Below are positions 38,613 to 49,670 of a DNA stretch of 64,000 nt, piece by piece (position 1 is the stretch's first letter; the number at the start of each line of letters is the position of its first letter). This DNA is from an uncultured Ruficoccus sp. (lineage in GTDB: Bacteria; Verrucomicrobiota; Verrucomicrobiia; Opitutales; Cerasicoccaceae), in assembly GCA_965140785.1 (NCBI GenBank), contig OZ223481.1:32001-96000 (forward strand). Direction: 5' to 3'. The notes beneath the pieces are model-generated. The model was not told the origin of the DNA, searched no databases, and saw nothing but the letters and a program-made list of their open reading frames with translations. The position numbers and the translations under genes were made by a program.

Positions 38613-40451
<1,839 letters not shown>

Positions 40452-40463
<12 letters not shown>

Positions 40464-40476
40464 ATTTCCTATAACA
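40452..40476 (+). other. Left attachment site (core plus attP arm)
   Basis: TAGATTTCCTATAACA (40461-40476) is the exact reverse complement of 49160-49175. Confidence 0.88.
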
Positions 40477-40800
40477 AAAAGGGATTGGGGAATCCTTATC
40501 TCTTTTACGGCAACGCTCAAGACCCAGCGACTGTCGGTCAACTACGTCGGGAACAAGCGTACGTGTCGCCAAACACTTATCATTGAGCTACATAGTCAAG
40601 GACTCAATGACCGTCAAATAGCCGATCACCTGAACGGATTGGATATTACCTCACCTACAGGGAAAAGGTACTATCCTGAGCTTGTATTCGCTGTTCGTAA
40701 AAAGCTAAAGGCACGCCAGCAGAGACTTGAGGAATCAAAGCTATCCATTGGGAAAATGGACATTTGTAAATTAATTGTAAAAAATAAAGAAATGCGATAA
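40453..40800 (+). other. Start-less 115-codon open frame with recombinase-type HTH motif; putative C-terminal segment completed across attP
   Basis: RWSRFPITKRDWGILISFTATLKTQRLSVNYVGNKRTCRQTLIIELHSQGLNDRQIADHLNGLDITSPTGKRYYPELVFAVRKKLKARQQRLEES...KEMR*; no ATG/GTG/TTG before the HTH; preceded by TGA (40450) in the integrated state. Confidence 0.65.
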
Positions 40801-40862
40801 ATTTTCAAAAAAACCCAAAATCCGGAATCGAGGCCTATAAATACTAGTAAAAGGGCCCAATA

Positions 40863-41336
40863 ATGACTTCGGATAGTATACGCAATGCAACCAGATTATT
40901 CCTAAATAGTAGGATAGAAGACTATTCAAATTGCATAGCTCTCACCTTAACGATGAAACAATATTCAGGGGGCTTTAAATTAGACGAAGTGCGTGCCAGC
41001 AAGGACTTTAGGCACTTCATGAATATACTAAATAAGAAGACATTTGGCAAGGCTTTTCAACGTTTCGGGAAACGAATATCAGTCGTACCAGTGATGGAAA
41101 ACTCAGAAAACGAACGTCTGCACTTTCATGCCTTACTTCAATGCCCTGATAAATACTCTTGGACTGCGGGCCAGGCCATTTTTGCGCTAAAAGCACAGTC
41201 TTTATGGAAAAAGACACACTTTGGATATGACCAAACGTCCAGTCGGTTGGCGGCCGACAAAGGCTGGACGGGTTACATAACCAAACTCAAAGGACAAGCC
41301 GATCAGATAGACTGGGAAAATTTCCACTGGAATTGA
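40863..41336 (+). CDS. Small HUH (Y1) endonuclease, rolling-circle Rep-like
   Basis: Motif I ALTLT, motif II LHFHALL (HUH), motif III GYITK. Confidence 0.75.
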   Translation: MTSDSIRNATRLFLNSRIEDYSNCIALTLTMKQYSGGFKLDEVRASKDFRHFMNILNKKTFGKAFQRFGKRISVVPVMENSENERLHFHALLQCPDKYSWTAGQAIFALKAQSLWKKTHFGYDQTSSRLAADKGWTGYITKLKGQADQIDWENFHWN

Positions 41337-41554
41337 CGGGTATAAACCCCTTTTCCATTTCCGAGTAGCATATCAAGGAGCGAAATAGCCCCTTGATACT
41401 TTGTTATATACAGAAACAACAAATTCCTAGAGTATATAATATCCTATATGTCAAAGAATAAAGTTATTCAGACAGTACACAGAGTTCTCCTAAGATAATT
41501 CTGATTCATATCTACAAAGGGATGCCGCAAGGCATCAGGCATCTTGATGCCTTC

Positions 41555-46773: not shown

Positions 46774-46930
46774 TCTTATCAAAAACCTCTCGTGATCCTT
46801 GATTATAGAATATAAATTCCATAACCAGTTACATAACCCATTGGCCACCATCCACTTATTTTAAGCCTTTTTATTTTACGCCCAGCACTGATTATATTAT
46901 ACTAATATTATCATAAAAAATAATCAGTAG

Positions 46931-47530
46931 ATGGCCCTTGGTAAGCAATCAAAGACACTTTCGAGCAAGCAGATCGATGCGATAAGTACCTACCTGCGGA
47001 ACCGCAGAAATGGGATACGAAACAATGCAATCTTCCTTCTCTCGGCCAAAGCCGGACTCCGTGCCAAAGAGATAGCCAATTTAAGATGGTCAATGCTCGT
47101 AGACGCTGATGGCCGCCTAACCCATACCATCAGCCTCACCGATAGCGCAGCCAAAGGTAGCTCTGGACGGACTATCCCCATGAATAAGACCGTGTATGCT
47201 GCCCTAGATGAGCTACTCCACATCGAACAGCCGATAGATGGCTTCACGATACAGACTTCATACGTCGTACGGTCTGAACGTTCGGACAGAACAAGCCCGC
47301 AGGTCATCGTCAATATGTTCCAACGCTGGTATCGAGAGCTTGGCTTCATTGGCTGTTCCTCTCATTCTGGGAGACGAACCTTTATCACCAACGTTGCCCG
47401 AAAAATAAGCCTAGTTGGGGGCTCTATACGTGATGTACAGGCCATCGCTGGGCATAAGCACCTCCAAACCACCCAACGTTACATAGAATGCGACTCTGAG
47501 TCTCAAAGAAAGGTAGTAGACCTTGTCTGA
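46931..47530 (+). CDS. Small tyrosine recombinase (catalytic domain only)
   Basis: GLRAKEI (R), AKG (K), SHSGRR (HxxR), AGH (H), TQRY (Y). Confidence 0.9.
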   Translation: MALGKQSKTLSSKQIDAISTYLRNRRNGIRNNAIFLLSAKAGLRAKEIANLRWSMLVDADGRLTHTISLTDSAAKGSSGRTIPMNKTVYAALDELLHIEQPIDGFTIQTSYVVRSERSDRTSPQVIVNMFQRWYRELGFIGCSSHSGRRTFITNVARKISLVGGSIRDVQAIAGHKHLQTTQRYIECDSESQRKVVDLV

Positions 47531-49157
47531 AATACTCCACATCTACACTCGGGTCAGTACCCAAGCTCAAAAGGAAGACGGAACCTCTCTCGACTCGCAG
47601 AAAGAGCAAGGAATCAAAAAGGCAAAAGGGCTGGGGTTTGAATATCGTATTTGGAATGAAGGCGGGCGATCAAGTAGCCATGATGACTTGAGCAACCGGC
47701 CAATCCTAGCATCTCTTCTGGATCACGTTGAAGCCAAGGGAGTAAAGCACCTTTGGGTTTACAACACCGACAGGCTCTCACGGAACGAGAACACCTGGAG
47801 CATGATACGCCTAAGCTTGGTCAAGAACGCAGTCACTCTCTACACGAACTCCGGCCTCTACCAGCTATCAAATGAAAGCGATAAATTAACCCTCGGGTTC
47901 CTTTCGCTAATAAGTGCCTATGAAAATACACTTAGAACAGAAAGAACAAGAACAGGCAAAGTCCAGAGGATCAAAGAAGGCTACTGGATGGGCGGCCCCC
48001 CTCCATATGGGTACAAGCTCATAAGCAAGAAGCTAGAAATCGACCCAGATGAAGCTAAATGGGTGAGATTCATCTTCGAGCAGTTCAGCAAGGGGCAGAC
48101 CGTCAGATGGATACGAAATAAGCTTCTTGAAAACAAGGTGATGACACGGCGGAAAAAGCCTATCTGGAGCCTTGGGTCCATAGAAAAATTGCTAACCAAT
48201 ACGCATTACGGCGGAAGCTACACCTACAAAGACAATAGAGACGATAATGTACACACGAGCGTCTGCCCTAGCCTACTGCCTGCCACGCTGATTATTGAGG
48301 CACAGAAAGAGAAGAAGCGGCGGTCAAAATTCAGGGCAAAAGAAAGCAACCAGAAACATTTCTACCTCCTGCGAGGCTTACTTCGGTGCGATCATTGCGG
48401 GGCACACTTCTCCGCTAGACGGTACGCAGTCCAAAAGCGCTCTAGCTACTATTGCCCCAGAAAGGAAAGAAATTACGCCAATGCCCCAGAGCGATGCGAT
48501 AACAGTAGATACCTGAAAATCGAAGAAACCGATGCCCTCATCGTAAGCACAGTAAAGGAAGTCTTGGCCAACTCGGGCCTATTCAAGCAGGAGATACGAG
48601 ATCATTACCTACAGCAGAATCAAGAGCAGCTACCCAGCAAGGACGATAGACGAAAAATCAAAGCCCGGATTAGGACACTTACCAAAGACATCAATGATAT
48701 CCGGTCCAAAATAACCATACTGGAGGCAGATCATCTACTTGAGAAGACAAGCAACACTCGCCTCAGCTTCATGAAAGTCATATCCGAGATCCAACGCCGG
48801 ATGCTGGTTGCCCAAGCGGAAAAGGAAAAGCTCGAAGAGACTTTGTATAATTTTGACCACCAAGAGCAGTTAAGTGATTGGTTTACAAAATATTCAGAAA
48901 GACTCAATGAGTTGGATGACATGACCGAGAAAGAATGCCAAAACTTTCTTAAAGGCGTTATCGAGTATATTTCAGTGCGCACGATCGATAAGAGGACACA
49001 CCAACTTAAAATCAAATTCCACTTACCGTACGTTAACGGTTATTTAAATCCCAATCAGTCCAACGAAGCAAACAAAGGTCCAGAGGCATCAACTGTAAAA
49101 ACACTGACCGTTGAGACTAAAAAAAAGCCCACAAACAAAACGCTTCAGCCGAAATAA
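47523..49157 (+). CDS. Large serine recombinase (integrase)
   Basis: YTRVST catalytic Ser, DRLSR, GGPPPYGY, recombinase domain, zinc ribbon CDHCG..YYC..C, coiled coil; TTG start overlaps the tyrosine recombinase stop. Confidence 0.95.
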   Translation: MSEILHIYTRVSTQAQKEDGTSLDSQKEQGIKKAKGLGFEYRIWNEGGRSSSHDDLSNRPILASLLDHVEAKGVKHLWVYNTDRLSRNENTWSMIRLSLVKNAVTLYTNSGLYQLSNESDKLTLGFLSLISAYENTLRTERTRTGKVQRIKEGYWMGGPPPYGYKLISKKLEIDPDEAKWVRFIFEQFSKGQTVRWIRNKLLENKVMTRRKKPIWSLGSIEKLLTNTHYGGSYTYKDNRDDNVHTSVCPSLLPATLIIEAQKEKKRRSKFRAKESNQKHFYLLRGLLRCDHCGAHFSARRYAVQKRSSYYCPRKERNYANAPERCDNSRYLKIEETDALIVSTVKEVLANSGLFKQEIRDHYLQQNQEQLPSKDDRRKIKARIRTLTKDINDIRSKITILEADHLLEKTSNTRLSFMKVISEIQRRMLVAQAEKEKLEETLYNFDHQEQLSDWFTKYSERLNELDDMTEKECQNFLKGVIEYISVRTIDKRTHQLKIKFHLPYVNGYLNPNQSNEANKGPEASTVKTLTVETKKKPTNKTLQPK

Positions 49158-49159
49158 GC

Positions 49160-49196
49160 TGTTATAGGAAATCTATATTACCACGGTGGAGTAGAT
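49160..49196 (+). other. Right attachment site (attP arm plus core)
   Basis: TGTTATAGGAAATCTA-TATTACC-ACGGTGGAGTAGAT. Confidence 0.88.
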
Positions 49197-49670
49197 GTGA
49201 TATTTAAGAGTACTGTGGACGTACTCATTCCGGCCTTGGCGTTTGCTATCCCCGCCATCATCTTTTTTCTGTATCTGGCGTCGATCTACCAGTGCGCCCA
49301 ACATAGGCAGGGGTACTTGGCGGCGGGCATAGCTGGAGTTGTGCTCATTGGGGCGATCTACGGAACCTACAAGCTATCCTGGACCGCTGCCGAGCTGACG
49401 ACCAAAACCAAATTCATGGCGAATGCCCGACGCAACCTATACCTGGGCTTTTACCACCTTCAACAAGATATGGAGGCTGGGAAAACGGGACTGGCTCAGG
49501 CAAAAATCAACTACTTGGTGGCGAAATGGGATGGGGTACAATACTTTAACGAAGACGGCGGCAAGTCCCTGAATAAGCTGACTGAAGCTCTCATGAGCAC
49601 TCCTCCCAAGGAATTTATAAACCAAGCGACCGAGACTGAAATCCCTGAAAGTAAAGACAACACGCCGTAG
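49197..49670 (+). CDS. Hypothetical membrane protein
   Basis: Two TM helices; GTG start with a GGAG ribosome-binding site supplied by the att core. Confidence 0.6.
   Translation: MIFKSTVDVLIPALAFAIPAIIFFLYLASIYQCAQHRQGYLAAGIAGVVLIGAIYGTYKLSWTAAELTTKTKFMANARRNLYLGFYHLQQDMEAGKTGLAQAKINYLVAKWDGVQYFNEDGGKSLNKLTEALMSTPPKEFINQATETEIPESKDNTP

Follow-up and report, generated by a model that had tools for sequence, protein, structure and literature searches.

A glmS-targeting large serine recombinase of Ruficoccus whose attachment site lies in a predicted frameshift-reached extension of its own gene

The window considered here, a stretch of 64,000 nucleotides from an uncultured Ruficoccus sp. (contig OZ223481.1, positions 32,001 to 96,000, assembly GCA_965140785.1), harbours an 8.7-kb element inserted at the end of the host gene glmS and equipped with a large serine recombinase (LSR). 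Coordinates refer to the window, and features lie on the forward strand unless stated otherwise. Comparison of the sequences indicates that the attachment (att) site of the element is very probably located inside the integrase gene, within a C-terminal extension that is reached by a −1 shift of the reading frame: the circular form would give rise to some LSR-X, a protein of 669 amino acids (aa), and the tail, open reading frame X (ORF-X), would be stranded when the element is integrated. A split of the integrase gene that doubles as a switch of recombination direction is, by a modest margin of belief, the best explanation overall. An earlier note on this DNA had described the element ends, an observation that is confirmed; its interpretation is partly supported and is incomplete, having missed the att site inside the hidden tail of the integrase.

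Attachment sites and the glmS target

The target gene glmS (38613..40463; identified by Pfam GATase and SIS domains and by its translation) ends in the codons T-V-E-stop, which straddle the crossover. At this end attL (40429..40476) is composed of host arm B, corresponding to the glmS coding end, a central AC (40452-40453) and element arm P' (40454-40476). At the other end attR (49160..49194) comprises element arm P (49160-49182), the central AC (49183-49184) and the displaced glmS end with its stop at 49192-49194. Direct repeats shared by the two ends reach at most 14 bp (40452-40465 / 49183-49196) and inverted repeats at most 16 bp (49160-49175 / 40461-40476); the coordinates and sequences of the earlier note are correct. 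Simple arithmetic over 120,000 position pairs gives chances of ∼4e-4 and ∼3e-5, respectively. Both motifs are unique to these places in the 4.36-Mb genome, where the arm motif has no other site at two or fewer mismatches.

The attP site reconstructed from the two ends is symmetric around AC only, with 19 of 24 positions matching against 10/24 for the next best of 20 centres, which bears out the centre proposed earlier. The reconstructed att sites are thus real, with the qualification that attB is devoid of symmetry (6/24 positions) and that its right arm is not a defined sequence: among 28 host-side arms there is zero conservation beyond the stop codon, and attB motifs are not found in both arms. 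Taken by itself, the window leaves the crossover anywhere within the 14-bp repeat, and it is placed at AC because of the attP symmetry and the evidence from relatives. AC is the best symmetry centre in all nine att pairs tested, and the identity shared by attL and attR across 12 complete elements ranges from AC alone, in three elements where later drift at wobble positions is possible, up to 19 bp. The crossover falls 9 bp ahead of the glmS stop, inside the coding sequence, and the TVE-stop end is identical before and after insertion, so the restoration of glmS by integration holds true. The B' arm of the window was considered as the P' arm of an older element and rejected: its score of −4.4 is in the range of host arms and no ORF-X lies behind it. 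Joints of attP or attB were not seen in three contig-only sequencing runs, a result that is uninformative either way.

The recombinase gene (47523..49157) encodes a 0-frame short form of 544 aa that contains Resolvase, Recombinase and Zn-ribbon domains in this order, as expected from its earlier identification as an LSR. The motif YTRVS is found at residues 8-12 and the catalytic serine motif DRLSR at 83. Relatives were collected by means of an alignment of 46 sequences, namely the LSR of the window and 45 of 120 listed homologues. The search yielded 80 metagenome and 80 viral-collection loci; all the metagenome loci and the five viral ones above 36% identity were analysed, and the remaining 75 viral loci were dropped. 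Since 16 of the 85 loci are too short, 69 are left. The motif AC-N-GTN-GAR-stop is present behind the LSR in 63 of them (54 distinct arms), compared with 51 of 13,800 shuffled windows and 1/69 on the opposite strand. Clade members occur in five of 401 genomes of the phylum, all five with the TVE-stop motif, which is found at none of 25 out-group LSR loci of the phylum genomes on the same strand. Members of this clade almost certainly exchange strands at the AC of a glmS Thr codon, judging from these patterns. The crossover bases are invariant because every synonymous Thr codon retains AC, and glmS is left unharmed because the element supplies a new TVE-stop.

Outside this sample, a single-protein scan of genome contigs returned only three distant LSRs (28–32%), the plasmid collection contained no clade member (best matches <30%) and the ESM Atlas, queried with P0001, gave generic LSR clusters only. 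The host range outside Verrucomicrobiota is based on three Proteobacteria rows of a published table discussed below. A subfamily (L108, L111, L112, L115 and L116) is distinguished by a 0-frame LSR that itself ends at the attR TVE-stop; in L116 a further site of similar kind lies at 10667, along with a duplicate of the LSR end.

Slippery heptamer and linker

A slippery heptamer, A AAA AAG, is positioned in the LSR frame at 49121..49127, inside a run of eight A residues (49119-49126). It is followed by a −1 frame linker of 19 codons (49127..49183) that spans the distance between the slippery site and the att core and is free of stops and of ATG, GTG and TTG codons. ORF-X (115 aa, 40453..40800), the apparent cut-off tail of the gene, starts at the core on the other side of the element.

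The same layout recurs across the clade. Of 58 distinct elements, 52 have a slippery heptamer in the LSR frame no more than 100 nt from the core (A AAA AAG in 30 of them), against a background of 121 in 1,216 windows. The −1 frame runs to the core in 53/56 elements with a site, as opposed to 13/56 for the +1 frame. Open −1 linkers characterize 50 of the 52 heptamer elements where shuffling predicts 15.0, and 29 of these 50 have no ordinary start codon. In G074 and L117 the linker and ORF-X are both displaced by one base, so that a change of phase leaves the register intact. When attP is re-formed in silico, products of 644–677 aa are obtained in 12/12 elements, that of the window being 669 aa long; the product of L048 is in frame and needs no shift. 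The −1 products of the integrated state vary with the host DNA and reach 561 aa in the window. At three further loci (L228:18032-19609, L229:17972-19417 and L045) the integrated LSR, read in the −1 frame, is stop-free into the host trpE frame.

ORF-X and its predicted partner

An ORF-X of 108–115 aa is found at 13/13 attL sites of elements; the empty site G002 described below has none, and in G004, where the LSR is gone, only 26 aa are left. Between the window and its relative in G001, 18 codon changes are synonymous and nine non-synonymous, a synonymous excess with p ∼3e-5 on the assumption that 72% of changes are non-synonymous under neutrality. Apart from the LSR, no gene other than X was found in all 12 complete elements (58 of 145 ORFs domain-scanned). 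At attL a stop lies directly ahead of the core and the first ATG, GTG or TTG is codon 63; a possible weak AUA start is located at 40471-40473.

The structural model of ORF-X (predicted local distance difference test, pLDDT, 79.9) begins with a beta-hairpin, continues in three helices and closes with a strand, and is predicted to include a helix-turn-helix (HTH) of recombinase type. Residues 27-95 match residues 166-279 of the SPbeta integrase, within its recombinase domain, with Z 7.6 and a root-mean-square deviation of 2.2 over 68 residues, at rank 2. The Pfam Recombinase profile weakly matches 11 of 18 ORF-X homologues (E up to 0.05, two above the cut-off). Foldseek gave no match for ORF-X at E 0.001, with the serine integrase 9y66 at rank 28 (E 1.4), and a PDB sequence search with the X profile returned weak HTH matches only. 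The comparison of X with the recombinase domain of its own LSR is likewise weak (probability 19%).

A complex model of LSR residues 165-544 with X scores 0.64 and the best of three controls 0.00; the mark applied is reached by 116 of 157 solved pairs and 2/215 mismatched pairs. The runs share at least 52% of contacts, with a partner pLDDT of at least 68. In the model residues 11-29 of X pair with LSR residues 490-505, and X touches 329-361 and 442-450. In this prediction residues 11-29 sit on the final strand of the zinc domain and at the foot of the coiled coil, the region to which known recombination directionality factors (RDFs) bind. Two parts of one split gene often pass such a test, so the model indicates a plausible fit only; it is the position of X that is informative.

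Joined forms and circles

Among 61 distinct contexts of attR type, 16 show ORF-X homology behind the core, and around ten of these have matching arms. Genuine tandem arrays with differing arms account for some of the 16; L054 and L117, both of this kind, are out of frame. Three contigs that carry attP but lack any host flank close on themselves into circles, namely L092 and the pair L101/L095, which represents one 5.6-kb circle. The linker-X frame is open in these contigs, and head-to-tail multimers would give the same appearance. The ∼10/61 junction contexts that resemble a cognate attP suggest that circles persist and do not re-integrate instantly.

A search with the X profile retrieves 545 proteins at E 1e-10, unrelated repeat proteins included. 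The N-termini of the 34 matches inspected by eye are often out-of-frame translations of glmS or of the P arm. P0158 consists of an LSR tail joined in frame to X, and P0271-P0274 are LSRs of 719 aa that match the X profile; P0274, the one compared, is 28% identical to the LSR of the window and has an X-like domain at its end. Tandem arrays of four to nine X-like HTH repeats occur in the serine recombinases P0126, P0137, P0139, P0174, P0178, P0188 and P0247 (683–1,085 aa) and are C-terminal in the three inspected.

Proposed mechanism and alternatives

The favoured explanation, a split integrase gene acting as a directionality switch, envisages two states. In the integrated state the element would produce the LSR of 544 aa and, as a minor dead end, a product of 561 aa, with ORF-X stranded at attL, from where X is perhaps also made weakly on its own from the AUA codon. 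The −1 shift at the A-run of the heptamer would arise by ribosomal frameshifting or polymerase slippage. Excision would rejoin linker and ORF-X through attP, and a fraction of the LSR would then be made as the 669-aa LSR-X. The short LSR would be the integrating form, and X, tethered to the enzyme in the circle, would favour excision and block re-integration. The outcome would be a switch between two states, one stably integrated and the other kept free for as long as the circle replicates by means of the HUH Rep protein of the element. Excision could begin if the short form acts leakily on an attR that has a free arm, or if translation of X is weakly initiated at codon 7-8.

X is preferred as RDF because the short LSR keeps all canonical domains, because the predicted position of X coincides with the RDF site, because no other gene is common to the 12 complete elements and because attP forms are frequent. 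The proposal that X is the directionality factor of the element, with a two-state switch, may be right or wrong in about equal measure. A little more tentative is the extension to the clade, a wide one in bacteria, whereby its members would encode their own RDF as a tail assembled by recombination and dosed by frameshifting: excision would build the fusion gene and integration would destroy it.

Several observations weigh against this picture. The linker is closed in two of the 52 elements with a heptamer, and a heptamer is lacking in six of the 58. No conserved frameshift stimulator was found, the fold z being below −2 in 7/52 downstream regions and a Shine–Dalgarno (SD)-like word being present in 16/52; a strong attP hairpin starts 32 nt downstream of the heptamer and is formed only in the circle. 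In E. coli A_AAA_AAG without a stimulator shifts at ∼0.3% and at most ∼3.7%, according to the data of Sharma et al. 2014 drawn on here (PMC4066793). The att arms themselves impose some of the conservation and of the open frame around the core. The loci compared are related and do not count as independent samples, the 68 LSRs clustering into 51 groups at 90% and four at 50%. The ORF-X of the window itself has no Pfam Recombinase match, and the modelled fold match of ORF-X is middling, tied with other HTH proteins. The complex model, built on alignments made for this analysis, could have passed because its partners are two pieces of one split gene or because they are similar to solved integrases. 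Finally, the in-frame L048 and P0271-P0274 would make the long protein only, which is hard to fit with a long form that does not integrate, unless they are assembly or mutation artefacts.

These in-frame fusions are more at home in the main alternative, which is unlikely on the whole and follows the logic of the suicidal integrases of archaea. LSR-X would here be the integrating enzyme, with X as a second DNA-binding head that offsets the unconserved attB arm. Frameshifting would keep LSR-X low, as in transposases of insertion sequences (ISs), integration would cut X off and thereby stop further integration, and excision would proceed via the short form alone or an incoming circle. The lack of conservation of B' beyond the stop, the resemblance of X to part of a recombinase domain (the SPbeta match at Z 7.6), the C-terminal repeats of X-like units in other serine recombinases and the archaeal precedent all speak for this scheme; the short form, however, retains every canonical LSR domain, the predicted interface of X is the RDF site and the ∼10/61 junctions like a cognate attP suggest persistent circles.

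It is improbable that X is mainly a small free protein translated from codon 7-8 inside P' (AUA, AUG or GUG), with an SD-like word provided by the V-E codons, in which case ORF-X would be an ordinary RDF gene at the end of the element and the fusion a side product. This would account for the start of excision from the integrated state, and a codon of the appropriate kind does occupy position 7 or 8 in 21 of 25 ORF-X copies (ATA in 17, ATG in one, GTG in two and ATT in one). ATA, though, also belongs to the att arm, four copies have no such codon, and a free X leaves the heptamer in 52/58 elements, the 50/52 open linkers against 15, the co-variation of phase and the in-frame fusions unexplained. 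More doubtful still is an ordinary island in which A-run, open linker and ORF-X are a relic or by-products of AT-richness and att arms: the element is indeed AT-rich (42% GC), yet the shuffling and background controls, the synonymous excess, the presence of ORF-X at 13/13 attL sites and the narrow range of product lengths speak against it. Insertion by the tyrosine recombinase of the element, with the 14-bp repeat as overlap region, can practically be dismissed in spite of intact catalytic motifs and a gene overlapping the LSR start, since this enzyme is absent in 50/70 loci with at least 1 kb of upstream sequence, is replaced by a small serine resolvase in several complete elements and would have to act on a shared core of only 2 bp in 3/12 complete elements. 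The tyrosine recombinase is accordingly not required at the site, being encoded directly upstream of the LSR in 12 of the 70 loci and anywhere in 20.

Comparison with known systems

The element resembles those of large serine integrases such as SPbeta SprA/SprB, phiC31, Bxb1 and A118 in domain order, in the inverted attP arms (about 50 bp) around a dinucleotide and in the 2-bp identity. It differs from them in having attP within a probable frameshift-reached integrase extension, a candidate RDF that is split off from the integrase gene by integration, and one attB arm that is unconserved past +10. To our knowledge, the RDFs of most LSRs are unidentified and hard to predict; the clade offers one RDF candidate at a fixed place. 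If correct, the mechanism would represent a natural counterpart of engineered integrase–RDF fusions and a one-gene two-state switch at a near-universal site.

The archaeal integrases of SSV1, pTN3 and pT26-2 are known as 'suicidal': the att site lies within the gene, which is split by integration and rebuilt by excision (Badel et al. 2021, PMC8371274). These enzymes are tyrosine recombinases, the system is stated to be exclusive to archaea, and the catalytic part is cut off (PMC8371274). As in the SSV type, the att site here is inside the integrase gene, a statement that applies to the −1 extended frame and not to the annotated 0-frame gene. In contrast to the SSV type, the bacterial serine enzyme keeps its catalytic and DNA-binding domains, and only the tail reached by the presumed frameshift is cut. 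A self-splitting serine integrase of bacteria combined with frameshifting would, if true, constitute a new form of direction control, earlier reports being confined to archaeal tyrosine enzymes. As for the frameshift itself, A_AAA_AAG is listed among the most efficient bacterial heptamers, and programmed −1 frameshifting operates in IS1 and IS3, in the material of Sharma et al. 2014 considered here (PMC4066793). The heptamer would similarly set the level of a fusion recombination protein; unlike the situation in IS1/IS3, the downstream frame exists only after site-specific recombination, and the search for a conserved stimulator was negative.

The conserved end of glmS is also the target of Tn7: TnsD binds the last 36 bp of the gene and insertion takes place ∼20–25 bp downstream with a 5-bp duplication, as described in the passages of Mitra et al. 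2010 used here (PMC2918618). The window element likewise exploits the conserved glmS end and leaves the gene intact, but it recombines within the last four glmS codons and without tns genes. The earlier claim of a non-Tn7 element at the conserved end bound by TnsD therefore holds: this is an LSR element without Tn7 genes, and a Pfam scan of its ORFs found no tnsA/B/C or tnsD/tniQ. Because attL retains the full TnsD site in coding terms, Tn7 and the element could share the locus. The conserved target, together with a host arm that seems free past the stop, means that single-protein insertion of large cargo at the Tn7 safe harbour could work in numerous bacteria; human GFPT1/2 likewise conserve this coding end, as noted in the same portion of PMC2918618. 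The 'ready-made integrase/att set' announced by the earlier note is not established, as the annotated 544-aa gene is the short form and the right arm of attB is undefined. Gene callers and LSR-mining pipelines annotate the short form only, so tests of the clade may have used incomplete genes.

In supplementary file 3 of Durrant et al. 2023 (PMC10083194) at least three clusters (7013, 3399 and 1628) have, by eye, a glmS-end attB; all are labelled Proteobacteria and their target is given as NA. Clusters 7013 and 3399 share the protein motifs of the clade and 1628 is more distant. The term 'glmS' occurs zero times in the main text, and neither a frameshift nor a split gene appears in the portion of the text examined (PMC10083194). 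As glmS-end att sets are listed in that supplement, the choice of site is already catalogued, though not discussed in those parts of the paper. The main text of the GeneTack paper (PMC3711429) mentions no recombinase, resolvase, integrase or invertase. A search of the openly available literature found no description of the clade or of the split-gene mechanism.

Relatives in the genus and the empty site

Among the matches listed, the closest named homologue of the LSR belongs to Ruficoccus sp. ZRK36 (91%). The same P' arm as in the window is found directly behind glmS in three of four congeneric genomes (G001, G003 and G004). G001 contains a complete element of 91% identity that has no IS and carries different cargo. 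The DNA behind its attR aligns to that behind glmS in G002, the first ∼130 bp being poorly conserved, and G002 therefore represents an empty site. In G004 (L036) a dead remnant is left, which consists of P' and the decayed ORF-X of 26 aa and lacks both LSR and attR; the contig of G003 ends early behind P'.

The earlier note had looked forward to empty sites with glmS directly followed by the gene that now adjoins attR (49197..49670, 157 aa, no Pfam or PADLOC match), which lies outside the element. No such site was found: this gene has no match in 33 loci and no DNA match in the four congeneric regions, where other genes fill its slot. The check thus gave no empty site for the window element and one, G002, for the sister element of G001.

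Gene content of the element

Without its IS the element measures 7.4 kb and has a GC content of 42%, compared with 59% for the genome. Behind ORF-X lies a gene for a Rep-like HUH protein of 157 aa (40863..41336; PF23343, E 4e-8; HFH at 87 and YITK at 138), likely a rolling-circle initiator to judge by its motifs; an HUH Rep is also present in four other complete elements of the phylum. No conjugation or capsid genes were found among the scanned proteins (the window element and 58/145 ORFs of other elements). An XRE-family HTH regulator (41555..41791, reverse strand; PF01381, E 2e-13) and a membrane-anchored protein gene are divergently arranged around a perfect 24-bp palindrome (41822..41845) that is kept in G001 and is a likely operator. 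The membrane-protein gene (41897..43827) is split into 41897-42250 and 43566-43827 by an IS3-family insertion sequence (42251..43565) with a 4-bp target duplication, and is unbroken in G001 (201 aa). This IS has ∼10 further near-identical copies in the genome and has apparently been active recently.

The cargo gene (44152..46773) encodes a TIR and STAND NTPase protein (Pfam TIR_2 and nSTAND; PADLOC PDC-S60, E 6e-67, and ThsB, E 5e-27) and is, from these matches, a probable anti-phage gene; two other genes take its place in G001. Between the sister elements the cargo differs: TIR-STAND at 43829-46801 in the window, a 137-aa protein and a PDC-S06-like AAA ATPase at L034:2788-5601. Restriction-modification, McrB-like, RelA/SpoT and PIN genes are the cargo of further elements. 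The short tyrosine recombinase (199 aa, 46931..47530) comprises the catalytic domain only, with its catalytic motifs, overlaps the LSR start and is probably accessory, serving to resolve circle multimers. In L041, L077, L098 and L117 a small serine resolvase replaces it, and accessory recombinases of either type would presumably perform the same task. Several of these roughly 10-kb elements are classed as viral contigs in IMG/VR (L118-L122).

Beyond attR, trpE lies behind the element in G154 and G341, and a short way behind glmS in four genomes that are more distant. What occupies the interval from attR to trpE varies within the genus: in the window (49197-50241) it holds the 157-aa orphan and yefM-yoeB, in G001 and G002 another membrane protein and only the tail of yoeB, and in G004 a 402-aa gene and yefM-yoeB.

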